The notes beneath the pieces are model-generated. The model did no database searches, was not told where the DNA came from, and saw only the letters and a program-made list of their open reading frames with translations. Of a stretch of 64,000 bases of DNA, positions 3,518-64,000 are shown piece after piece; positions within the stretch are counted from its first letter, which is position 1; the number at the start of each line of letters is the position of its first letter. Source of the DNA: Fibrobacteria bacterium (GTDB taxonomy: Bacteria; Fibrobacterota; Fibrobacteria; UBA11236; JADFYW01); contig JBNKOC010000008.1 in assembly GCA_050294405.1 (NCBI GenBank), positions 59,332 to 123,331 of the forward strand. The letters are read 5' to 3'. Position numbers and translations under genes: made by a program.

Positions 3518-3681
3518 AGTTGATTTAAATTATAAGATGCGCCAAACCAATGCAAACAATAAATTGTTAAAACATTAAATTTTGTGTTTTTGCGTAAAAA
3601 TGGCCCTTTTTTTTGCATTTAAAATAAAAATAGACTCTTAAAATCCTTCATTGATCCAAAATTTGAGGGTATAATTATCTC

Positions 3682-4053
3682 ATGAATCAAAAATTTGACG
3701 AAATTTTAGTTTATAATCGTGTGGGAACCCTTAGACGTGTGACTGTGGAAGCATTAAAAAGGTTGAATTATAGTTCAATAAAAGAGTTCTCAAGCAAGGA
3801 TGAATTGGAAAAAGAGCTTAAATTAGATATTCAATTTTTGTTGATTTTGGAGATAACAGGGGAGAACCCTGTGTCCGAGCTTGAGCTAATTCAAAAATAT
3901 TCGGGCCGTCATAGAATGCTGGTTACTCTTCAAATAAGCAGTAAAGAGTTGATTTTAAAACTTTCTCGTGCTGGGGCTAAAAATGTGCTCTTAAAGAGTT
4001 TGGATATCGGAGGCTTCTCTGAAAAATTACAAACCGCTCTCGGTCCCCGTTAG
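3682..4053 (+). CDS. CheY-like pseudo-receiver domain protein (acid pocket lost)
   Basis: Aligns along its whole length to CheY (ILVYNRVGTLRRVTVEALKRL.. versus [21 protein letters not shown]..). DD is replaced by NR and the phospho-Asp position is Glu (LILEITGENP); the conserved Thr and Lys are retained. RBS GAGGG sits upstream. Confidence 0.5.
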   Translation: MNQKFDEILVYNRVGTLRRVTVEALKRLNYSSIKEFSSKDELEKELKLDIQFLLILEITGENPVSELELIQKYSGRHRMLVTLQISSKELILKLSRAGAKNVLLKSLDIGGFSEKLQTALGPR

Positions 4054-54623: not shown

Positions 54624-56190
54624 TAGGAGTGAAGGACTCAGCTATGCGAAGACTTTTGGAACTTTAACCAATAGTTTATTGTATACACCGCCTGAAATAT
54701 TAGTGTTGTCCTCCAGCGAAAAACTATTCGCTGACATTAGCGGGCTTTTCCCTAATTTGTCTGTAAGAAGAGTGAACCTGGAAAAATTGCCCGGTTTTTT
54801 TGAAAATTGGAATGAAGCAATTTTAGCTTTGGAAGCTAAATACTCATCTGCCTTTTTGGAATTGAATCCTTCGGACAATGTTTTTGAAAGTTGCATTTTA
54901 TTTGGCAAATCAAAATTAACATCGGAAGAACTGGTTCAATGGTATGAAAAAGGGGTGTACTACATTTCCCAAAGTTTTTCCAAAGACAAAAAATTAAAAA
55001 GCAAATTTGAAAAGCTTGTAACTCAAAAATGCAGTGTGATGAGCCAACGCTTTTTGAGCCAAAGGCTAAATCATGAATTTGAAGATCAAAAAAAGCATAT
55101 CCAGGAGCAAAACGATTTGCTGCAAATGGCCGTGCACGATTTGAGGTCTCCTCTTTCGGCCATGGTATGTTATTCTGAATTGTTGATGGACGGGGTGCTG
55201 GACAGCATAAAAGGAACCAAAGTGGACCCCATAAACATCATCCACCAAAATTGTGAGTTTTTAATTGATATGGTAGATGACTTGCTGGATTCCGCTCAGT
55301 TAGAAGCAGGCAAAAAAAGTTTGAAATTAGTGCGCTCCAATTTTACCAACATCATTTTAAAGGTAGTTCGCTCCCTAGAGGGTTTGGCCCGGGTAAAAGA
55401 TATCGACATCATTACCCATTTGGATTCCATTCCCGATTTGTTTGTGGACCCTCAAAAAATGGAGAGAATTGTAATAAACCTTTTGGGCAACGCCATTAAA
55501 TTTACCAAAGCTAAGGGAACTATCGTTATAAAATGCACAAGGGTGGAAAATAACATTGTTTTTTCCATTCAGGATACGGGTCCTGGGATTCCGGAAAAGG
55601 ATTTGGAAAATATTTTTGAAAAATTCAATATAGGTGATGACAGTAAAATTTCGGGCAAAGGGCACGGCCTTGGGCTTGCCATAACTAAATCCTTTGTGGA
55701 AATGCACGGGGGAAAAATATTTGTTAAATCTGAAAGGCATAAAGGTTCCACCTTTATTATCCACCTAAGAGTTGAAAAACGCCTTTCCCACTTACATCGA
55801 GATGGAACTAAAAAAATCCTGTTTCTGGATGCGGCGCAAGATATTCCAGATGTTAACAGCCTGGTTCACATTGCGGGCGCCGAAGTGGAATTTTGGGATG
55901 TAAAGCAGTTTAAAAAGAAATCGAAGGAAATGTCCAAATTCGCTTCCGTTATCATCAACGAGAAAATGGATTTTTCCACCATCGGGCATAAATTCTTCCA
56001 TAATCTGGAAAACTCCCAGCTCAAACACAGGCCCTGGTTCTTTTTATTTCCTTCGGAAATAAGCAAAGATGAAAGAATGTTATTTGAGTATTTAAATATA
56101 CATGTATTGATTAAACCTCTGGATTTGCCCCAGCTTGTATCGGAAATTGAAAAGTATTTAACGGTGGATAGGCGTAAAAAGGAAAATTAA
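54592..56190 (+). CDS. histidine kinase flanked by receiver-like domains that lack Asp
   Basis: H-box MAVHDLRSPLSAM. HATPase N/G boxes (NLLGNAIKF, DTGPGI, GHGLGLAI). N- and C-terminal alpha/beta segments resemble degenerate receivers (KILFLDAAQD...LIKPLDL). Confidence 0.8.
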   Translation: MNIELMKAIRSRSEGLSYAKTFGTLTNSLLYTPPEILVLSSSEKLFADISGLFPNLSVRRVNLEKLPGFFENWNEAILALEAKYSSAFLELNPSDNVFESCILFGKSKLTSEELVQWYEKGVYYISQSFSKDKKLKSKFEKLVTQKCSVMSQRFLSQRLNHEFEDQKKHIQEQNDLLQMAVHDLRSPLSAMVCYSELLMDGVLDSIKGTKVDPINIIHQNCEFLIDMVDDLLDSAQLEAGKKSLKLVRSNFTNIILKVVRSLEGLARVKDIDIITHLDSIPDLFVDPQKMERIVINLLGNAIKFTKAKGTIVIKCTRVENNIVFSIQDTGPGIPEKDLENIFEKFNIGDDSKISGKGHGLGLAITKSFVEMHGGKIFVKSERHKGSTFIIHLRVEKRLSHLHRDGTKKILFLDAAQDIPDVNSLVHIAGAEVEFWDVKQFKKKSKEMSKFASVIINEKMDFSTIGHKFFHNLENSQLKHRPWFFLFPSEISKDERMLFEYLNIHVLIKPLDLPQLVSEIEKYLTVDRRKKEN

Positions 56191-57515
56191 TGGCCTTGTT
56201 GGGGATAAAAAGAGACAGCCTCTCTTATAAAACAACCATCCTTTATGTTATTTCCGGATTAATCATTATTTCCCTGTTTAATTTTATTATTTGGGAAAAC
56301 CAGTCCGAACTAATTATTGAAAACCAAAAAATGGTGGTGGAATCCAAGTCCATTCTCATGCGAAGGTTGGTGGTTAACATTTTAGAATCCGATGACTCCA
56401 CGGACACCATGGAGAAATACAAGAGCCTGGCGGAAAAAGCGGTGGACGAAGGCATGGCCCAAACGGTGGTTTACTCAGAGGGCGGCCATATATTGTATCA
56501 ATGGAACCAGGAGTTGCTGGGAGATTTTGCTGAAAACAGGGAGTTGATTTTAATCAACCGCAGTATCGCCCGCTTTGAACTGGAAAATAAACAATTCCTC
56601 CACAATACAAATCTGGAAAGAGGGTTAATTGAATTGTATTTGCCTTATCAGGATCCCAAATTCAATAACATAGTGGTGATAAAATTCGCCCTGCCGCTTC
56701 TGGAACTCACCAATCGAAAAAATGATGTATTAAAAATATGTATCTTGATTACAATTGCGATCTTGTTATTACAGCTTGGAATGGCCTTTTTTCTGCGCAA
56801 GCTGATTATTGTACCCATATCTAAAATTGTAAGGATAACAGAAGCGGTGGCCGGGGGTGATCTGAAACAAAGAGCCACCATCGCGCAAAAAGATGAAATA
56901 GGAATTTTAGCTGGGGCCTATAACAAGATGATGGTGAACTTGGATATGATGCAGGCCGAGGCTAAGGGAGCTAATCCCTTGTCCGGACTTCCTGGTAACC
57001 TGACCATTATGAGAAAAATTGATGATGCCCTGGCTCAAAATAAACAAGTTAGCGTAATATACGGTGATTTGGATAACTTTAAAGCCTATAACGATAAATA
57101 CGGCTTAAATAAGGGCGATGAGGCTATATTACACACCAGGGATTGCTTTGTAAAGGCGGCGAAACAGGCTGGAGATAACGATACCTTTGTGGGCCATGAG
57201 GGCGGTGATGACTTTGTGATAGTTACCAGCTTTGAAACCTGGGAACCTATTTGCCAGAAAATTGTGGAGTACTTTGATGAGGGCGTACCCAAATTTTACT
57301 CCAGCCAACATATAGAACAGGGATACATTGATGCCTTTGACAGGCAGGGCAATCCGGTTAAGTACCCTCTTATGAGCATTTCCCTGGCGGTGGTGAGCAA
57401 TCATTTCCGTAAAGCCGATGACCATCGCTTGCTTATATCCTGGGCCGGAGAAATGAAAAAACTGGTGAAAAAAATGGAAGGAAGCTCATACGCCATTGAC
57501 AAACGCACAGAATGA
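56190..57515 (+). CDS. membrane sensor: TM, periplasmic domain, TM, HAMP, degenerate GGDEF (GGDDF)
   Basis: LSGLPGN, YGDLDNFKAYNDKYG, GGDDFVIV. No RxxD I-site. Confidence 0.7.
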   Translation: MALLGIKRDSLSYKTTILYVISGLIIISLFNFIIWENQSELIIENQKMVVESKSILMRRLVVNILESDDSTDTMEKYKSLAEKAVDEGMAQTVVYSEGGHILYQWNQELLGDFAENRELILINRSIARFELENKQFLHNTNLERGLIELYLPYQDPKFNNIVVIKFALPLLELTNRKNDVLKICILITIAILLLQLGMAFFLRKLIIVPISKIVRITEAVAGGDLKQRATIAQKDEIGILAGAYNKMMVNLDMMQAEAKGANPLSGLPGNLTIMRKIDDALAQNKQVSVIYGDLDNFKAYNDKYGLNKGDEAILHTRDCFVKAAKQAGDNDTFVGHEGGDDFVIVTSFETWEPICQKIVEYFDEGVPKFYSSQHIEQGYIDAFDRQGNPVKYPLMSISLAVVSNHFRKADDHRLLISWAGEMKKLVKKMEGSSYAIDKRTE

Positions 57516-59242
57516 AAAAAAAGCCATCACATTTAGCCTACGAATTTTTTTATACGCTAAACCCTCTTTTGTTGCTGGCGGCTTTTATACTGCTTTCCCT
57601 ATACATGAACGAAACGGTCATCAAATTCCGACTACAGGAATTTGATTCAGGCTTAAAGGAACTTTCGGAAAAAGAAGCGCTTAGCCATTCGGTAAACATT
57701 TTAGCCCGATTTGAGATGATCAAAGAGCGTCTAAATAACCCCAATGCCGATGAGACCGAATTAAAAAGAGAAGTAAAGTTTCACGCCATCACTTCCAATG
57801 ATTTGGTATCCGGGTCCAGTTTTTCTTTTTCTCCTTCGGAAAAGTTGGTTATCCATTTGATCAATGGTTTGCGTATTATGATGGGGAAAAAAATTAGCCA
57901 GTTTGGAATGTCTGGCAATTCAGAAAAATCGTTGGAGGTGGCCTATTTTTATGAACGCAATCGAAATTATAAAAAGGCCATTGCTGAATACGAAACATTA
58001 TTATCAGAGTCCTGGCCCTCTCAAATTCTTTCCACCATCTACTTACATCTGGGCTTTTGCAAGGCCATGACAGGGGATTACAAAGGCTCCAGGGACGATA
58101 TACAATACATTACCTCCCGGGATGAATTTACCGGAAGCGATAACTGGAAAGTGGCTTGGAAAATGGAAAAAGAATTGAGTAGCCTGGAATCCCGCGCGGC
58201 AAAACTTAAAGAGGAGCCCTTGGACCTTTTGGAAAGAGGTAAAGAACTATTCCGTATGGGCAATCACATCCAGGCGGCCAAAGTTTTAAAGGAATTTATA
58301 GAGGAATCCCCCAAAAAGAAGGTATCGGAAAGCCAATATTTTTTGGGTAGAGTTAATGAAGATGAGGGCCGTTTTGAAGACGCCGTGTTAAATTACACCA
58401 AAGTTTTAAAAAATGAGCCCACCTCAGACTGGGCGCAAAAAGCCAACCGGCGCTTATATGTATTGGGAAAGTTCTATTCGAAAAACGAACAGCTTGCCGA
58501 TGTTGCTAAACGAAACAGCCAGGTCCTAGGAGATACATCTATTATCCGGGAGCTCGAAGTATTTGAAAAAATTGAAGAAGCAAAACCGGAAGATAATCCA
58601 CTGCCGCCCGCTCCCGATACCACCGCAAAAAAACAGGAAGAATCACAAACAGCTGACTCTTTGGAAGCTATTTCCAAAGAAACCATAGCTACTAAAGATA
58701 GCGCCACTCAAAAATTGGAAAAAAGTCCGGAAGAAACCAAAGCTGAAATAGCGGAAAAAGAAAAGGTGCAGAAGATACTGGAAATACTGGAAGATATACG
58801 TTTGCCCGAAAAACCTCTGGAGGAGGCAGAGCAGGAAATGGTTGCTGTGCAGGAAAAAGGGGAAATGACCGAGGAAGAACGCAGAAAGTTGGAGAAAAAA
58901 GACCGAGAAATTATTTCGGACCCCATCCGCACCAAGGAAATTTTTTCCGTTATCAAAGCTCGCAGTACAGAGCTTCAGTACGTGTATGAAAAATGGAAGA
59001 AAAAGGGTTTGGTGGGGCAGGGGCAATTGGAACTGGTCCTGGTTATCTCCCCTCAGGGAGAAGTGAGGGAAGTTCGCATTGAAAATGTTGACAGGGGCAT
59101 AAATTCTGATATCTTTGAGAAAGAATTGGTGGAAAGAATTCAAAAATGGAAATTCAGACAAAAAAAGGGGACGACCCAGGATGTGGCGGTAAATTTCCCC
59201 ATTTCTTTTATAAGCCGGGATGCCCGCTCGGCGGGGCCTTAG
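57512..59242 (+). CDS. TPR-repeat protein with a Glu/Lys-rich linker and a C-terminal TonB_C-like domain
   Basis: N-terminal TM. TPR units. C-terminal ...GQGQLELVLVISPQGEVREVRIENVDRGINSDIFEKELVERIQKWKFRQ resembles the TonB C-terminal fold. Confidence 0.55.
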   Translation: MKKKPSHLAYEFFYTLNPLLLLAAFILLSLYMNETVIKFRLQEFDSGLKELSEKEALSHSVNILARFEMIKERLNNPNADETELKREVKFHAITSNDLVSGSSFSFSPSEKLVIHLINGLRIMMGKKISQFGMSGNSEKSLEVAYFYERNRNYKKAIAEYETLLSESWPSQILSTIYLHLGFCKAMTGDYKGSRDDIQYITSRDEFTGSDNWKVAWKMEKELSSLESRAAKLKEEPLDLLERGKELFRMGNHIQAAKVLKEFIEESPKKKVSESQYFLGRVNEDEGRFEDAVLNYTKVLKNEPTSDWAQKANRRLYVLGKFYSKNEQLADVAKRNSQVLGDTSIIRELEVFEKIEEAKPEDNPLPPAPDTTAKKQEESQTADSLEAISKETIATKDSATQKLEKSPEETKAEIAEKEKVQKILEILEDIRLPEKPLEEAEQEMVAVQEKGEMTEEERRKLEKKDREIISDPIRTKEIFSVIKARSTELQYVYEKWKKKGLVGQGQLELVLVISPQGEVREVRIENVDRGINSDIFEKELVERIQKWKFRQKKGTTQDVAVNFPISFISRDARSAGP

Positions 59243-59404
59243 TGGGAGTGGCTTGAAAAAGTTCCTTAAAATTCTCCAGCTTTTTCAAATGGCTTTGATA
59301 CTGATTGTGGGCTATTTATTGTGGAAGGGAATTAACAATTATTTTTAATTGAAATCCCCTAATAAAATAAAGCAAACTGGAATCAGGAAAAATTCGAAAA
59401 TAGG

Positions 59405-59432
59405 TTGACAATCTATATTCGCCAAATATATT
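59405..59432 (+). promoter_or_regulatory. sigma-70-type promoter TTGACA-N16-TATATT
   Basis: Perfect -35, 5/6 -10, about 40 nt upstream of the GTG start of the acidic ORF; RBS AGGAG at 59461-65. Confidence 0.55.
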
Positions 59433-59471
59433 TCAGCTAATTACACAGGTTATTGTGAGAAGGAGAAATCG

Positions 59472-59699
59472 GTGGAAGAAGATGAATTGAGAAATTTTGG
59501 ACGCCGTCCCAAACAGGATGATTTTGACGACCTGGATCCATCTGATGAGGATTTCAACGGATACCAGGGCGATTCCTTCGATGGGGATGACGATGACGAT
59601 GAACCGGATGAAAGCGAAGAAATCAATCTGGACAACCCTGATTTTAAAAAGGGAGAAATGTGGAACGATTACGCTGACGACTTGGATTTTGAAGAATAA
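59472..59699 (+). CDS. small hyper-acidic protein (75 aa, ~45% Asp/Glu), GTG start
   Basis: Strong RBS and a consensus promoter. The stop lies 3 nt before the mltD-like start. Confidence 0.5.
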   Translation: MEEDELRNFGRRPKQDDFDDLDPSDEDFNGYQGDSFDGDDDDDEPDESEEINLDNPDFKKGEMWNDYADDLDFEE

Positions 59700-59701
59700 A
59701 A

Positions 59702-61717
59702 TTGGTGCTCCTACGTTTTTTAAAATTATTCTTTTTAATTACAGCAATTCCGCTTGTTCAAAATTGTAGCGTTACAAAAACTAACCCTTCGGCTCCTGGC
59801 TTTAGCTCTCCATCGGGGGAACTAAACCAAGACCAAATTTTATTTTCGGAAGTTTTTGAATTTCTAAATCCGGGTTTAGAATACATGAAGGATTCTTTGT
59901 GGTTCGAAGCCCAGGATAATTTCGACTCTGCCTTAGCAAAACTAAATGAATTAGAGTCCCTGGATTCACTGGACAGCAGCTATTACCAGCATATCCATGT
60001 ATATCGCGATTCCATTTATAAACTGCTTATACATGTTACTTCTGTAACCAGCCAGATGGCCATTCAATTGCCTTGGTCCCTTTGGTGGGATACGGAAATG
60101 GAAGATGTTAGTGATAGCGCCATTGTTGCCATGGATAGTTTATCCGCGCATCTGCATCCTGACAACTACGATTTACCTCTTTCTTTGCCCCTTCATCCCA
60201 GGGTGTTGCAAGCCATGGCTGTTTTAAAATCCGAAAAAGGCCGCAAGTATTTCCAAAAATGGATTAACAGACGTTCCCGCTATGAAAATATGATTCTGGC
60301 CAAATTAAAAGAGCATAACATGCCCCAGGATTTAATCTACCTTGCTATGATAGAAAGCGGGTTTTCTCCCCGTGCCTGGTCCAGGGCTGCTGCCAGCGGT
60401 GTTTGGCAATTTATATCGGCAACAGGCAGGCGTTACGGCCTTAGTTCGGACTGGTGGGTGGACGAAAGGCGCGACCCTGAAAAAGCCACCTTGGCTGCTA
60501 TCAAGTACCTTTCCGAGTTGCACGAAGAGTTTGGCGATTGGTATTTGGCTATGGCAGCCTACAACTGCGGGGAAAATCGCATCCGTCGAAAGCTAAAAGA
60601 AAATCCGGGAGCCAGCTACTGGGATATGACTTTGCCCAGGGAAACAGAAAAATATGTTCCAAAAGTTTTAGCTGCCATGATAATCGGTAAAAATCCCGAA
60701 CATTACGGTTTTACCCTATCGCCCGAGCCGCCCATTGAATACGATACGGCCACAGTGTTTCACTGTTTATCTCTGGCCAATATTGCCGAAGCTGCCGAAG
60801 CCGAAGAAGAGGATGTTAAGCTGCTCAACCCAGAATTAAAACGCTGGTGCACGCCTCCTAATGCAAAATCCCACGTTGTAAAAATCCCTGTTGGCAAAAG
60901 AGAAATTTTCCTGGCTAACTACGAAAAAATGGACAAGACCAATTTGGTGAAATGGCATCGCCACAGGGTTTCCCGGGGGGAAAACCTGGGTTACCTGGCC
61001 AATAGATATGGTGTGAGTATTGGGGCTATAAAAAGCACCAATAACTTAAAAGGAAATATGATTCGCATAGGCCAAAAGCTTATTATTCCTGTTCCGGGGG
61101 GCGGCCAACCTTCTAAAAAATCAAGCAACTCTGCTGAAGCCCAAAAACCCGAGCCAGTGGAATTTAAGAAGACAACAACTTCCGCTGTGGCCGGAGAATA
61201 CATTGTCCAAAATGGCGACAATTTATACGACATCAGCCGCAAACTAGGTATTTCAGTCCGAGATTTAATGAGCATCAACAGCCTAAGCAAAAACGCCATA
61301 ATAAGGCCGGGCCAGGTTTTAAAAACTACGGCGGGCTCTACAGCTGCAGACAATACATCTGGCCATAGCTCAAGTCCTAAAGAATCCGCTCTATCCCGCA
61401 GTGCAGAAGAAGAGTACAGCGTATACAGGGTTCGTGCCGGAGATAACCTGGGAGTTATTTCCAATAAATTGGGAGTGGATGTGGCCCAGCTAAAAAGCTG
61501 GAATAAACTAACCAGTAACCGCATAAACATCGGTCAGGAACTACGCTATTTGCAGGTAAACAGCGATGGCACAAGCAAAATGTTTTATACGGTTAAACCT
61601 ATGGACAATTTGTGGGATATATCTGTTCGCTTTCAAACCACAGTAAAAGAATTAAAACGCCTAAACCCCGATCTACCTAAAGTGCTTAAGCCAGGCCTTA
61701 AAATTAGGGTGCAATAA
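59702..61717 (+). CDS. membrane-bound lytic murein transglycosylase D-like (SLT domain plus three LysM)
   Basis: Lipoprotein-type signal. SLT motif LAMIESGFSPRAWSRAAASGVWQF. Three LysM repeats (YIVQNGDNLYDISRKLG..., YRVRAGDNLGVISNKLG..., YTVKPMDNLWDISVRF). Confidence 0.85.
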   Translation: MVLLRFLKLFFLITAIPLVQNCSVTKTNPSAPGFSSPSGELNQDQILFSEVFEFLNPGLEYMKDSLWFEAQDNFDSALAKLNELESLDSLDSSYYQHIHVYRDSIYKLLIHVTSVTSQMAIQLPWSLWWDTEMEDVSDSAIVAMDSLSAHLHPDNYDLPLSLPLHPRVLQAMAVLKSEKGRKYFQKWINRRSRYENMILAKLKEHNMPQDLIYLAMIESGFSPRAWSRAAASGVWQFISATGRRYGLSSDWWVDERRDPEKATLAAIKYLSELHEEFGDWYLAMAAYNCGENRIRRKLKENPGASYWDMTLPRETEKYVPKVLAAMIIGKNPEHYGFTLSPEPPIEYDTATVFHCLSLANIAEAAEAEEEDVKLLNPELKRWCTPPNAKSHVVKIPVGKREIFLANYEKMDKTNLVKWHRHRVSRGENLGYLANRYGVSIGAIKSTNNLKGNMIRIGQKLIIPVPGGGQPSKKSSNSAEAQKPEPVEFKKTTTSAVAGEYIVQNGDNLYDISRKLGISVRDLMSINSLSKNAIIRPGQVLKTTAGSTAADNTSGHSSSPKESALSRSAEEEYSVYRVRAGDNLGVISNKLGVDVAQLKSWNKLTSNRINIGQELRYLQVNSDGTSKMFYTVKPMDNLWDISVRFQTTVKELKRLNPDLPKVLKPGLKIRVQ

Positions 61718-61746: not shown

Positions 61747-62664
61747 ATGAAAAAATTTGGTAAAGCTCTGGTTCTGTTATTGGTATTTGCCGTCGGCTGC
61801 TTTTTTCTTATGATGAGCGGTTTCTTTAATATGTTATCCTCCTTAACCGGTGATTTAACCTACATGGAACTCGAAAATAAACCTCATGTATCTGTGCTTA
61901 AGGTGGAAGGTCCCATCATGGGTTCCGAAGCAATATTGACGCAAATCGAGGCCATTCGCAAAAATAAAAACTCCAGGGGTATAATAGTTCGCATCGATTC
62001 TCCCGGGGGAGCGGTGGGCGCATCTCAGGAAATTTTCACCAGCCTTAAAAAAATTAAAGAGGATAGCATTCCCGTTGTGGTGTCTATGGGAAATACCGCA
62101 GCTTCCGGCGGCTATTACATTGCCCTTGCGGCCTCTAAAATATTCGCCAACCCTGGCACCATAACTGGTAGCATTGGCGTGATAGCTCAATTTCCTGTGG
62201 CCTCAGAGCTTATGGATAAAATTGGCGTGGATGTTACTACCGTAAAAAGCGGTGAACTCAAAGATGCCGGCTCTCCCTTCCGCAACCCAAGCTTAACAGA
62301 CAGCCTCTATTTCCAGGGTGTTATCGACGATACATACGAACAATTTTTTGGCGATGTAATGGACTCTCGTCCCATTAGTGCCGACAGTTTAAAACAAGTG
62401 GCCGATGGCCGTATCCTTACAGGGCGGCAGGCTCTGGGTTGGGGTCTGGTGGACAGCCTGGGGGGATGGCAGGAAGCCAAAAGCTACATGGCCAGCCAAG
62501 TCCAGCTTTCTCAGGCAGATTTTTATGAAATCCCCAAAAAACGCAGTCTTTGGGAGCGCCTCAACGAACCTGTGGAGGGCAGCCTCAATAAATTAGGCCA
62601 ATTTCTCAGCCGAAATCTGGGTTTTGGCGTATTTTACATGCCTCATTTGCCACTTAACTCCTAA
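61747..62664 (+). CDS. sppA: signal peptide peptidase SppA (36K type)
   Basis: N-terminal TM. ClpP/crotonase-fold motifs (IVRIDSPGG, NTAASGGYYIALAASKIFANPGTITGSIGV). Confidence 0.85.
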   Translation: MKKFGKALVLLLVFAVGCFFLMMSGFFNMLSSLTGDLTYMELENKPHVSVLKVEGPIMGSEAILTQIEAIRKNKNSRGIIVRIDSPGGAVGASQEIFTSLKKIKEDSIPVVVSMGNTAASGGYYIALAASKIFANPGTITGSIGVIAQFPVASELMDKIGVDVTTVKSGELKDAGSPFRNPSLTDSLYFQGVIDDTYEQFFGDVMDSRPISADSLKQVADGRILTGRQALGWGLVDSLGGWQEAKSYMASQVQLSQADFYEIPKKRSLWERLNEPVEGSLNKLGQFLSRNLGFGVFYMPHLPLNS

Positions 62665-62698: not shown

Positions 62699-62732
62699 GG
62701 CTTTTGCTTTTGAACCAAAAGCCCATATTTTG
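62699..62732 (+). terminator. putative intrinsic terminator after sppA
   Basis: GGCTTTTG-cttttgaac-CAAAAGCC followed by a T-rich run. Confidence 0.45.
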
Positions 62733-62744
62733 TAAATCGTATTC

Positions 62745-64000
62745 ATGAAATATTCTTTTTTTAAAAGGCTAAAATGGCCTGGTTTAAGGGGTATTCCTCT
62801 TGGCCTGGTTGTTTTTATCGCCCAAGGGCTGGGATTAAATAAAGCATATGCCCACCAGCTGCAAGTTTTAGAAGACAGTCCCCGGCAACTTAAGCTGGAA
62901 TTAAAGCTGGACCCGATACATTCTGGCAAACAATTTAAAAGCCTTCAGGAGTTTATGGAGGCCTGCCAAAAATGTGTGCCCAGTTCTAAAGCGGGGGAGC
63001 CTAACAGACCTTATTACCCCATACAAGTGGTGGCGGAAAAAGAGCCTTCCATAAACTATGTAATTGATAAAAGCCAAAGTTTATTTGTTAAAGTAAACCC
63101 TAAGCCTGTACCCATTTCCAAAAGCCCCACTGAAGAAGTTTATGAAAAGGATTTGCAGTTGTATAAAAAAGCTAATGCTTTAACTCCAGTTATTTCTACC
63201 CAAAAGAAAATGCGCTCTTTGCCGGTTTATACCGTTTTATTGCCCTTGGCCAGTTGGGATGAAAGTAAATCCAAGTGGAATTGGGTCACAGATGTAACAT
63301 GGAGCCTTCGTTATAAATCAAACAATCCAACTCCGGTAAATTTGAATATTCCCAAAAACATGGAACAAAGCTTAGCAAACCCCATTGGAGCTAAAAGTCA
63401 GATAAAAAACTTAGGTCTAAATTCTTTACGCAAAATAGGAACCCGGCAAGCCATTAACATAAAGGGCCCCTTGGTAAAAATACAAATAGGGGATAGGGAA
63501 GTGGAAGGCCAATTGGAGGATGGCTATTATAAATTAACCTATCAGGAAATAAGGGCTGCGGATAAATTAAGAGGGACCAAAAACTTTACCTTTGGGAATT
63601 CCATAAACAGCATTTCCATGTATGCGGGTGTGGAAAGACGGCCTTCGGAAATACCGGAGGGCTTGCCTCATGGAGGAAATTTAATAGAAGTGCCAATACG
63701 GGTAGTGGATGTAAATAAAGATGGAACTTTTGATGACGAGGATTATATTGAGTTTTTTGCCCACGGTACATCTGTATGGAATGAACTCAGCTGGGATTCT
63801 CTGGCCACATTTCCCATACATTATGAGTTGGATGTAAACCCCTTTAGCTTTTACAATTATTATTATCTTGATTTTAAATCTGGCGCCGGGAAAAAACTCG
63901 AAACTCTGGAATCCCTTTCTGTGGAAGGGTCCACTAAAACAAGTTCTTACACTTACCTTCACCGCCAAAAAGAGTTCCAATTGGGTACCTGTGCCTATGG
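62745..64000 (+). CDS. secreted protein of unknown function, 3'-truncated at the window end; 5' end disrupted by a 1-nt frame offset in a T7A5 tract (possible pseudogene or sequencing indel)
   Basis: ATG 62745 opens a 32-codon ORF. The +1 frame is open from 62749 to the window end (over 415 codons). It begins with a signal-peptide-like ..KWPGLRGIPLGLVVFIAQGLGLNKAYA|HQ but has no in-frame ATG/GTG/TTG. Confidence 0.5.
   Translation, partial: MKYSFFKRLKWPGLRGIPLGLVVFIAQGLGLNKAYAHQLQVLEDSPRQLKLELKLDPIHSGKQFKSLQEFMEACQKCVPSSKAGEPNRPYYPIQVVAEKEPSINYVIDKSQSLFVKVNPKPVPISKSPTEEVYEKDLQLYKKANALTPVISTQKKMRSLPVYTVLLPLASWDESKSKWNWVTDVTWSLRYKSNNPTPVNLNIPKNMEQSLANPIGAKSQIKNLGLNSLRKIGTRQAINIKGPLVKIQIGDREVEGQLEDGYYKLTYQEIRAADKLRGTKNFTFGNSINSISMYAGVERRPSEIPEGLPHGGNLIEVPIRVVDVNKDGTFDDEDYIEFFAHGTSVWNELSWDSLATFPIHYELDVNPFSFYNYYYLDFKSGAGKKLETLESLSVEGSTKTSSYTYLHRQKEFQLGTCAY

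Follow-up and report, generated by a model that had tools for sequence, protein, structure and literature searches.

Directly in front of a lytic transglycosylase gene in the window (the whole stretch of DNA that was analysed, 64,000 nucleotides) lies a 75-codon open reading frame whose predicted product consists to nearly one half of Asp and Glu, which raises the question of whether this frame is a gene at all and, if it is, what such a polyanionic peptide has to do with a cell-wall enzyme. The frame and the elements belonging to it are listed here.

59405..59432, + strand: sigma-70-type promoter, with the -35 hexamer TTGACA at 59405-59410, a 16-nt spacer and the -10 hexamer TATATT at 59427-59432
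59461..59465, + strand: Shine-Dalgarno sequence AGGAG, read directly, 6 nt 5' of the GTG
59472..59699, + strand: acidic micro-protein gene, 75 codons with a GTG start and a TAA stop at 59697-59699, from the ORF list
59499..59540, + strand: N-terminal linear motif (N-motif), residues 10-23, GRRPKQDDFDDLDP
59541..59615, + strand: poly-Asp/Glu linker, residues 24-48, variable, with a pN of 0.35, above that of either motif
59616..59696, + strand: C-terminal linear motif (C-motif), residues 49-75, EEINLDNPDFKKGEMWNDYADDLDFEE, with the lowest pN (0.15)

Coding status, family and disorder of the acidic micro-protein

The product contains 22 Asp and 11 Glu (33/75, 44.0% acidic), nine aromatic residues (F+W+Y, 9/75) and six Lys and Arg, giving a net charge of -27 and a computed pI of 4.05. 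The long ORFs of the window have a mean D+E content of 11.9% and a maximum of 17.8%. The original prediction had described a GTG-started, hyper-acidic protein of 75 residues with interspersed aromatics and about 45% Asp/Glu, preceded by a perfect -35, a good -10 and an AGGAG site. The ORF, the -35 hexamer and the ribosome-binding site were all confirmed; the -10 was also found and the promoter as a whole scored 11/12, but TATATT differs from the consensus. This score was the best within the 4-kb region scanned, and the exact pattern TTGACA-16-TATATT occurs a single time in the 64-kb window. Taken alone the match is within chance, as 10 of 100 shuffles gave at least two matches with no more than one mismatch. 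Across five aligned loci the two hexamers and the bases next to them do not vary, and in 20 distinct upstream regions from the wider clade of the window the hexamers are kept at 11/12 with a varying spacer, 60-100 nt before the GRRPK codons. An AGGAG- or GGAGG-like sequence stands at the equivalent place in four further loci (L019, L020, L023 and L030). The transcript would start near 59439, leaving a leader of about 32 nt, and, judged from sequence, the micro-protein would be highly expressed.

Spurious ORFs of 60-100 aa are plentiful in the region, so that length alone stays at chance level, and together with the non-significant promoter match this would suit a chance ORF lying inside a non-coding mltD leader. 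However, the peptide is kept across 54 distinct sequences despite saturated synonymous sites (pS > 0.75), for which reason pN and pS are given here instead of dN/dS. The pN/pS values were 0.15/0.88 for the C-motif, 0.25/0.81 for the N-motif and 0.35/0.82 for the linker. In the same 54 sequences the invariant residues (G, R, P, K, E, D, F, W and Y) are each spelled with 2-6 synonymous codons, and the positions of the start codon and the ribosome-binding site are conserved as well. An Rfam scan of the region returned sub-threshold eukaryotic families only, Rfam on eight Fibrobacter-type loci gave zero matches, and the apparent "long 5' UTR" of the Fibrobacter-type loci is a coding micro-ORF. The finding exceeds chance because the peptide is conserved through synonymous-codon turnover in 54 sequences and the promoter is kept in 20 loci. 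Codon turnover and pN/pS refute the chance-ORF reading, to which we leave virtually no probability, and show, on this comparative evidence, that the 75-codon ORF truly codes for a protein.

Sixteen close relatives share 51-70% identity with the micro-protein, and a profile search recovered 229 relatives at 90% clustering, so the family numbers at least 229. Its members are 60-80 aa long, hyper-acidic and without an export signal; those with a named source all come from the Fibrobacterota and are all annotated "hypothetical", among them WP_073191854.1 of the cultured Fibrobacter sp. UWP2. The micro-protein had zero matches in Pfam, NCBIfam, PHROGs and PADLOC, and a profile search of PDB sequences with E up to 10 gave none either. 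No acidic ORF was found upstream of mltD in 17 mltD loci, 16 of them from other phyla, and a literature search returned nothing on the family or on a small acidic gene preceding mltD. As sampled in the databases, this is shown to be an undescribed family restricted to the phylum Fibrobacterota.

Conservation is concentrated in two islands. The N-motif has the consensus GRRPK.D.FD..P, in which all 54 distinct sequences share G, R, P and K, and the second R occurs in 98% of them. The C-motif reads EE(V/I).(F/L)D.P.F....W.DYA.D.D(F/Y).., with E49, E50, D54, P56, F58, W64, D66, Y67, D70 and D72 invariant, and the C-termini of the family follow D-[FY]-[DE]-[EQD]. The linker differs in length and sequence among relatives while its acidic composition is retained. 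Two AlphaFold2 runs, with 16 and 49 sequences, gave no fold (pLDDT 64, pTM 0.19-0.20) and placed short helices at residues 18-21 and 65-71 only, so the disorder prediction, which had been proposed as a check, was supportive. With no stable fold in these models, a biased composition and conserved islands, the micro-protein is predicted to be intrinsically disordered and to carry short linear motifs, and the C-motif probably forms an amphipathic helix upon binding. Inspection of the sequences revealed no signal peptide, lipobox, hydrophobic stretch, or Tat motif with a hydrophobic region in any family member, and the micro-protein is probably cytoplasmic.

Linkage to mltD and the upstream membrane micro-ORF

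The genes around the acidic micro-protein gene in the window are the following.

59220..59348, + strand: hydrophobic micro-ORF, starting at ATG 59220 or TTG 59253, product ..LKKFLKILQLFQMALILIVGYLLWKGINNYF
59702..61717, + strand: MltD-like lytic transglycosylase gene, its product a probable lipoprotein with an SLT domain and four LysM repeats
61747..62664, + strand: SppA-type S49 signal-peptide peptidase gene (Pfam Peptidase_S49, 1.1e-46)
62706..62722, + strand: terminator-like hairpin after sppA, from a consensus scan only

The downstream product contains the catalytic SLT domain of family 1 (Pfam PF01464, 5e-28) at residues 198-307 and four C-terminal LysM stretches (Pfam, 2.8e-47). Its best NCBIfam match is murein transglycosylase D (3.8e-77) at 259.6 bits against a curated cut-off of 508, and the product is thus MltD-like by architecture, not a scored equivalog. 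The N-terminus, MVLLRFLKLFFLITAIPLVQNC, is signal-peptide-like and ends in Cys, with ...IPLVQNC read by eye as an atypical lipobox; the MltD homologs have clearer lipoboxes, L-(A/S)-(A/G)-C, and all begin with lipoprotein signal peptides. The protein is mildly basic, with a pI of 8.8.

An mltD homolog is the next gene in 52/52 distinct loci having enough downstream DNA, and zero copies of the acidic gene stand away from mltD among them. The upstream neighbours vary (TPR/TonB_C, TSP_3/OmpA, Wza, a sigma-54 regulator, NfeD, 2-hydroxyacid dehydrogenase and others), and the gene after mltD is likewise variable between loci, so the link to a lytic transglycosylase that had been suggested is not accidental. 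Looked for before mltD homologs in related genomes, as the original prediction had proposed, the small ORF was present and its peptide conserved across the Fibrobacterota, the opposite of the absence in relatives that had been set out beforehand as speaking against it.

In the window mltD starts at TTG 59702 (or GTG 59705), behind a gap of 2 nt (59700-59701) after the micro-protein stop; the two genes do adjoin, as had been described, at this distance and not at the 3 nt given earlier. The start codon is weak and has no clear Shine-Dalgarno sequence of its own. About 30 distinct Fibrobacter-type loci have a gap of -4 nt, the two genes overlapping in GTGA, and in other loci it measures 0-49 nt; translation of the micro-protein and of mltD would usually be coupled. 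In one clade (L041-L048) mltD has a GAGG ribosome-binding site to itself, 83-143 nt downstream and past GC-rich hairpins, yet the pair has not separated there and conservation of the peptide is no lower. Folding of 14 junctions with gaps from -4 to 143 nt revealed no common RNA structure. The sppA gene, which follows mltD in part of the family only, starts 29 nt past the mltD stop and is probably the third gene of the transcription unit, with the hairpin as its probable end.

The micro-ORF at 59220..59348 encodes a basic N-tail and one transmembrane helix and is conserved in L018, L019, L020 and L030; because it lies 5' of the micro-protein promoter, it is probably transcribed with the preceding operon. 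In 33 fetched loci, comprising L024 and those of the Fibrobacter type, the acidic gene is directly preceded by a membrane micro-ORF of 44-68 aa with the consensus ..PxWHRK.QKAYR.NR followed by a transmembrane helix. This membrane micro-protein has 135 database members, the named ones all from Fibrobacter or Hallerella, with locus tags adjoining those of the acidic gene. The window micro-ORF may be related to it, as hhalign gave a probability of 82% over 28 columns for what is a membrane-helix-biased match. No membrane micro-ORF was found in the L023/L031-L048 clade, L025, L028, L029 and L052. Such an arrangement would fit a three-part envelope module, in which the acidic protein would bind the membrane micro-protein at its basic cytoplasmic tail and the two together would link a cytoplasmic cue to MltD, and the adjacency in 33 loci, the neighbouring locus tags, the possible relative in the window and the complementary charges of the two micro-proteins all speak for it. 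However, the acidic motifs are unchanged where the membrane micro-ORF was not found, the promoter stands between both genes in the window, and the homology of the two micro-ORF types depends on the biased hhalign match; we hold this module to be quite unlikely.

Possible functions and likeness to known systems

We tentatively favour a reading in which the micro-protein is a trans-acting cytoplasmic partner tied to MltD production, and would give it somewhat less than an even chance. The strong conserved promoter and the good ribosome-binding site would drive the micro-protein gene, and ribosomes ending its translation would re-initiate on mltD; because of such re-initiation, MltD would be made only alongside the micro-protein and at a fixed lower ratio. 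The micro-protein would then act in trans within the cytoplasm via both motifs. It might hold the unfolded, mildly basic, LysM-rich precursor and hand it over ahead of Sec export, or alternatively report the cytoplasmic state to the machinery making or placing MltD, and it would not inhibit mature periplasmic MltD. Action in trans is suggested by the N-motif, which lies about 50 residues from the stop and is as invariant as the C-motif, and by the equal conservation of the peptide in L041-L048, where mltD has its own ribosome-binding site. MltD is predicted to be exported and the micro-protein lacks a signal peptide, so that the two should occupy different compartments once the enzyme is mature, which would limit direct contact to the MltD precursor. 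The dedicated regulator or chaperone that had been guessed at would therefore have to work in the cytoplasm, on this precursor or on its synthesis. The electrostatic argument for a chaperone is a weak one, because the pI of MltD is only 8.8.

Among known systems, CP12 and SutA resemble the micro-protein in being short disordered chains with two conserved binding motifs and a flexible spacer, an architecture that by analogy suggests a protein that bridges larger partners or regulates them; they are unrelated to it in sequence, however, and neither is tied in the same obligate way to an exported cell-wall enzyme. Antitoxin-toxin and barstar-like cassettes likewise begin with a small acidic, partly disordered protein whose gene overlaps or abuts that of a potentially dangerous enzyme, so that the enzyme is never made without its partner, and this inhibitor-first layout is also seen here, with a gap of 2 nt in the window and -4 nt in about 30 distinct loci. 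Barstar, which is cytoplasmic, serves the secreted barnase. In contrast to such cassettes, the micro-protein has no DNA-binding domain and no homology to their members, and it forms with mltD a phylum-wide chromosomal core pair that is not mobile. We know of no cytoplasmic substrate of a lytic transglycosylase and see no obvious one, so a protective role of the barstar kind is not obviously needed. Pup and UBact are similar in length (about 65-75 aa), acidity, disorder and a helix-forming C-terminal part, and the last residue of the micro-protein alternates between Gln and Glu among relatives. However, some relatives end in Asp, neither the C-terminal GGQ/GGE of Pup nor the R-[TS]-G-[EQ] of UBact is present, and the neighbourhoods annotated with Pfam families contain no PafA, Dop or proteasome gene; with the wrong C-terminal motif and gene context, the Pup-like reading was rejected.

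Proteins that inhibit lysozymes and lytic transglycosylases in the periplasm are a known class, and the tight linkage to a lytic transglycosylase gene might suggest another one, meeting mature MltD in the periplasm as an extracytoplasmic inhibitor, chaperone or cell-wall-polymer mimic. Ivy, MliC/PliC and PliG are, like the micro-protein, small proteins associated with an enzyme that cleaves peptidoglycan glycan strands, but they are exported and folded, whereas the micro-protein has no signal peptide, no fold and no similarity to them. To our knowledge, their genes are generally not encoded in front of the target; the micro-protein gene, in contrast, is strictly fixed 5' of mltD. No family member has a signal peptide, a Tat motif with a hydrophobic region, a lipobox or a hydrophobic stretch, no folded domain is present, and no dedicated exporter is conserved alongside the gene. 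The earlier suggestions of a cell-wall-polymer mimic and of a direct inhibitor of active MltD found no support, because the micro-protein lacks a signal peptide and hydrophobic segment while the MltD homologs carry lipoprotein signal peptides and are exported, and a periplasmic role of any sort is very unlikely. The DNA mimic that had also been proposed fared no better. Ocr, ArdA, HI1450 and DMP19 share the very high negative charge density, but DNA mimics are folded, present a charge array like that of the phosphate backbone and are mostly products of phages, plasmids or defence loci. The micro-protein, in contrast, is without a fold in the models and without a match in PHROGs or PADLOC, and its gene stands in a conserved chromosomal context that shows no sign of mobile elements or defence genes.

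A DNA mimic would be one form of a broader alternative, a cytoplasmic polyanion whose job is unrelated to MltD and which would bind, for instance, some basic protein (RNA polymerase, a ribosomal protein or a nucleoid protein). It would agree with a micro-protein that is cytoplasmic while MltD is not, and with a linkage that is known from one phylum only, as a single-phylum pair can persist merely through the reliance of mltD on the promoter and ribosomes of the small gene. Disordered acidic proteins of small size that regulate cytoplasmic machines are known, one being SutA, which is reported to modulate transcription initiation (bioRxiv 10.1101/423384). Against this polyanion stand the pair itself, which is the sole invariant while both flanks were reshuffled many times, the clade with an independent mltD ribosome-binding site that still keeps the pair together, the zero copies away from mltD among 52 informative loci and, for a DNA mimic in particular, the ordered charge arrays of the folded mimics and the lack of any phage or defence signal; we regard it as a minority reading with some real weight. 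An alternative of a different kind is a cis-acting leader peptide: while still being made, the acidic chain would halt the ribosome or destabilise it close to the stop codon, as an arrest peptide or through Mg2+-sensitive destabilisation by the Asp/Glu run, and so set re-initiation on mltD, the released peptide being functionless. MifM arrests on an acidic cluster. As in SecM, MifM, VemP, MgtL and other acidic or proline-rich small ORFs that abort translation, an acid-rich upstream ORF abuts the regulated gene and has a conserved C-terminus by the stop. The 2-nt distance between stop and start in the window, the GTGA overlap in most Fibrobacter-type loci, the weak mltD starts (GTG or TTG) with no clear Shine-Dalgarno sequence, the last 27 residues before the stop as the most conserved segment and the Asp/Glu run 25-50 residues from the N-terminus would all suit a leader, and small ORFs that abort translation are reported to control a downstream gene (PMC8092293). 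However, GRRPK is invariant phylum-wide although it would lie outside the exit tunnel at termination, and all members lack the N-terminal signal or membrane segment of the force-sensing SecM, MifM and VemP kind. Moreover, the peptide is just as conserved in L041-L048, where mltD initiates independently, no common RNA structure hiding the mltD start was seen in the 14 folded junctions, 60-80 aa with a strong ribosome-binding site and a promoter is unusual for a leader, and mltD encodes neither a secretion nor an insertion factor. A leader peptide is on this evidence unlikely.

A more specific version of control from inside the cell is a Fibrobacterota-wide device that acts on the lytic transglycosylase either via the basic tail of the membrane micro-protein or via an FtsZ-tail-like segment competing for a division protein, so that cell-wall cleavage by MltD would depend on a state of the cytoplasm, for instance division or envelope stress. 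The D-x-P-x-F-[KR]-[KR] segment of the micro-protein resembles the conserved FtsZ C-terminal peptide. In the E. coli FtsZ tail the hydrophobic positions I374 and L378 are important; the micro-protein is polar at both matching positions, for which reason the resemblance is kept only as a lead, and no FtsZ gene was found in the window or in any fetched locus. We consider this device improbable.

Possible significance for autolysin control in the Fibrobacterota

Lytic transglycosylases can kill the producing cell, and their restraint is only partly understood; the protein regulators of these enzymes known to us act in the periplasm. In the Fibrobacterota, which include the main rumen cellulose degraders, a whole phylum keeps a probably cytoplasmic, disordered, polyanionic micro-protein fixed to mltD, with which it would often share ribosomes. 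Regardless of the role, two families can now be defined, one with at least 229 acidic members and one with 135 membrane micro-proteins, gene calls in which the promoter has been read as an N-terminal extension of the protein can be put right, and the family is testable in cultured Fibrobacter. If the micro-protein is indeed a cytoplasmic partner with an effect on how MltD is made, exported or placed, it would represent a new mode of autolysin control and a clear example of a disordered bacterial micro-protein that has a function, and if the cytoplasmic device is real, it would be a new way to regulate an autolysin across the membrane.

An acidic gene in front of mltD

The original prediction described a GTG-initiated ORF of 75 codons with an AGGAG ribosome-binding site and a promoter with a perfect -35, followed by an mltD-like gene, and we found every element of this layout in place in the window:

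59405-59432, + strand: promoter-like site TTGACA-16-TATATT, score 11/12
59461-59465, + strand: ribosome-binding site AGGAG, 6 nt ahead of the GTG start
59472..59699, + strand: acidic ORF, 75 codons, GTG start, TAA stop at 59697-59699
from TTG 59702 or GTG 59705, + strand: mltD-like gene, SLT domain and four LysM repeats
61747..62664, + strand: S49 signal-peptide peptidase of the SppA type, next gene after mltD
62706, + strand: terminator-like hairpin after sppA

The encoded micro-protein contains 22 Asp and 11 Glu (44%, vs a mean of 12% in the long ORFs of the window), 6 Lys and Arg together and 9 aromatic residues, with a net charge of -27. The top NCBIfam match of the mltD product is murein transglycosylase D, at a score under the curated cut-off. 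Taken alone, the length of the acidic ORF and its single promoter match are within chance, and the case is made by comparison with relatives. An antisense ORF (59450..59635, - strand) encoding 61 serine-rich residues mirrors the GAT/GAA-rich coding strand and is most likely not a gene.

A single-sequence search revealed 16 proteins of 65-92 aa with 51-70% identity to the micro-protein, and profile searches returned 20 relatives from 1.84 billion cluster representatives and 229 from a 5.8-billion collection. All relatives with a named source are from Fibrobacterota (Fibrobacter, Fibrobacteraceae, Fibrobacteria), and their annotation is always "hypothetical", including that of WP_073191854.1 from the cultured strain Fibrobacter sp. 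UWP2. The micro-protein has no match in Pfam, NCBIfam, PDB sequences, PHROGs or PADLOC, and no Rfam match was found for the region of the gene. In a codon alignment of 54 distinct acidic-gene sequences drawn from contigs, G10, R11, P13, K14, E49, E50, D54, P56, F58, W64, D66, Y67, D70 and D72 are invariant, each written with 2-6 synonymous codons save W64, which has a single codon. Synonymous sites are saturated and non-synonymous change is low (pS 0.88 and pN 0.15 in the C-terminal motif, 0.81 and 0.25 in the N-terminal motif, 0.82 and 0.35 in the linker). By this codon pattern, the acidic ORF is a gene, conserved at the level of its peptide.

The conserved residues form two islands, GRRPK.D.FD..P (residues 10-23) and EE(V/I).(F/L)D.P.F....W.DYA.D.D(F/Y).. 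(residues 49-75), around an Asp/Glu-rich spacer of variable length and sequence. AlphaFold2 models (pLDDT 64, pTM 0.19-0.20, with 16 or 49 sequences) contain only two short helices, at residues 18-21 and 65-71, and the micro-protein is thus predicted to be an intrinsically disordered polyanion with two linear motifs. Hydrophobic stretches are absent from all family members, leaving no Sec, Tat or lipoprotein signal, and the micro-protein is probably cytoplasmic. The FtsZ conserved C-terminal peptide reads L-D-I-P-x-F-L-R. Within the C-terminal island, (F/L)-D-x-P-x-F-(K/Q)-(K/R) (window 59616..59660, residues 49-63, and all relatives) resembles this motif, which is the general one rather than the phylum's own, with two hydrophobic positions polar here.

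The conserved unit of acidic gene and mltD

Near relatives share the order HisKA, HAMP-GGDEF, TPR/TonB_C, acidic gene, mltD, sppA and C25 peptidase, which says little about linkage. The neighbourhoods of distant members (31-46% identity) are unrelated: upstream lie FGE-sulfatase, DegT, a zinc-ribbon protein, divergent TSP_3/OmpA, Wza, a sigma-54 response regulator, NfeD or 2-hydroxyacid dehydrogenase, among others, and 3' of mltD lie MurC, UbiE, an ankyrin protein or an epimerase, among others. We fetched 71 loci with 60 distinct acidic ORFs, 52 of them followed by 600 nt or more of sequence. Looking for the ORF in relatives, as proposed with the original prediction, showed it to be present, and in 52/52 of these distinct cases the next same-strand gene is an MltD homolog (SLT+LysM). 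All these homologs have an N-terminus that resembles a lipoprotein signal peptide. Only part of the loci have sppA after mltD, and only the window's wider clade has TPR/TonB_C and GGDEF genes upstream. No acidic ORF was found upstream of mltD in 17 mltD-type loci, 16 of them from other phyla. The conserved unit is the pair of acidic gene and mltD, head to tail on one strand.

In the window, two nucleotides separate the acidic stop from the first mltD start codon, TTG 59702. The gap is -4 nt (a GTGA overlap) in about 30 distinct Fibrobacter-type loci, 0-49 nt in other loci and 83-143 nt in the L041-L048 clade of relatives. The two genes can share a transcript, and in most lineages they are arranged in the classical manner of termination-reinitiation coupling. 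A separate GAGG ribosome-binding site serves mltD in the L041-L048 clade, where GC-rich hairpins (for example, GGGCCCC..GGGGCCC, then CCTGG..CCAGG) stand 3' of the acidic gene, at 3680-3730 in both L044 and L045 and right after the acidic stop in L041 and L042. Acting as stabilisers or as partial terminators, these hairpins could keep the micro-protein in a high ratio to MltD.

Some features of the surroundings are of separate note. The flanks 56190..59242 (+) and 62736..64000 (+) are conserved within the window's wider clade only; the upstream one holds genes for a HAMP-GGDEF protein and for a TPR protein with a C-terminal match to TonB_C and the AgmX/PglI C-terminal domain. A C25 (gingipain-type) peptidase gene lies 3' of sppA in two relatives (L018, L019). 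In one distant member (L029 5253-6762), two gene calls cover the MltD region, of 207 aa and then 297 aa (SLT and LysM); a frameshift, a split gene or a separate protein for the N-terminal domain could account for this.

Promoter and membrane micro-ORF upstream

The site at 59405-59432 is the top one in the 4 kb scanned and the sole exact occurrence of its pattern in the 64-kb window. Across five aligned loci the spacer differs, but both hexamers and the bases immediately beside them do not change. Within the window's wider clade, TTGACA-16-TATATT recurs at 11/12 in 20 distinct upstream regions, 60-100 nt 5' of the GRRPK codons. Judged by this conservation, the acidic-gene promoter is real. The deposited gene call for one relative protein (P0015, L023 5060-5134) reads the conserved promoter as an N-terminal extension (MLDNGGAQNIFG..), and by sequence similarity to it P0016 carries the same type of extension (MLDNRKLQDIFG..); the true start of the L023 acidic gene is an internal ATG downstream of GGAGG.

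In Fibrobacter-type loci, what looks like a 200-nt leader varies at third codon positions and is a coding ORF. It encodes a protein of 44-68 aa that has a basic N-tail and a single membrane helix (consensus ..PxWHRK.QKAYR.NR(I/V)IILLQ....G.I.(F/V)G....), and its stop lies 10-20 nt 5' of the acidic gene. A profile search placed it directly 5' of the acidic gene in 33 fetched loci, namely the Fibrobacter-type loci and L024 (for example, L055 3350-3502 and L024 4815-4985). The 135 database proteins of this type are all "hypothetical", and those with a named source all come from Fibrobacter or Hallerella and carry locus tags that adjoin those of the acidic gene. A look-alike in the window (59220/59253..59348, +), upstream of the promoter and common to L018, L019, L020 and L030, matched the Fibrobacter type in hhalign profile-profile comparison with 82% probability over 28 columns, a weak match that for membrane helices is no more than suggestive. 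The membrane micro-ORF could be driven from a further promoter-like site (TTGACA-16-TATCTT plus a TG extension, 10/12, window 59088..59115, +), which falls within the last part of the TPR/TonB_C gene.

Possible roles of the micro-protein

The link to MltD put forward in the original prediction held in 52/52 loci, while the inhibitor or mimic that it suggested is unlikely in a periplasmic form: MltD is predicted to leave the cytoplasm and the micro-protein, having no export signal, to stay there, which disfavours a direct inhibitor or polymer mimic. We prefer a cytoplasmic partner whose synthesis would be tied to that of MltD; MltD would be produced only when the micro-protein is, and in smaller amounts. 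The two motifs may then act on the MltD precursor, or on the machinery by which MltD is made or placed; the pI of MltD (8.8) gives only weak electrostatic support.

The micro-protein shares with known arrest peptides its position and C-terminal conservation. We nevertheless consider a purely cis-acting arrest or ribosome-destabilising leader peptide quite unlikely, because the two motifs are equally invariant, though the N-terminal one would lie outside the ribosome tunnel at termination, and because conservation of the peptide is just as strong where mltD initiates independently. Both points argue for a trans-acting protein. Inclusion of the membrane micro-protein in a three-part module would fit its place beside the acidic gene and is quite unlikely: no copy turned up in the L023/L031-L048 clade or in several other fetched loci, and since the acidic protein is unchanged there, it cannot be the sole partner. 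An unrelated cytoplasmic role, with the linkage kept only because mltD depends on the operon, would also account for the constant gene pair and is rated unlikely beside the trans-acting partner of MltD.

We compared the micro-protein with known systems and found their defining features mostly absent from it. Periplasmic lysozyme/transglycosylase inhibitors have in common with it only the association with such an enzyme, and DNA mimics only charge. Its gene order and coupling recall antitoxin or barstar-like cassettes; its size, disorder and Gln/Glu C-terminus recall Pup and UBact; and its disordered architecture with two motifs recalls CP12 or SutA. We found no literature on this acidic family, and by these comparisons the micro-protein belongs to no described family. 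The acidic-gene family is thus an undescribed, phylum-restricted one with a strictly conserved and unusual link to an autolysin gene.
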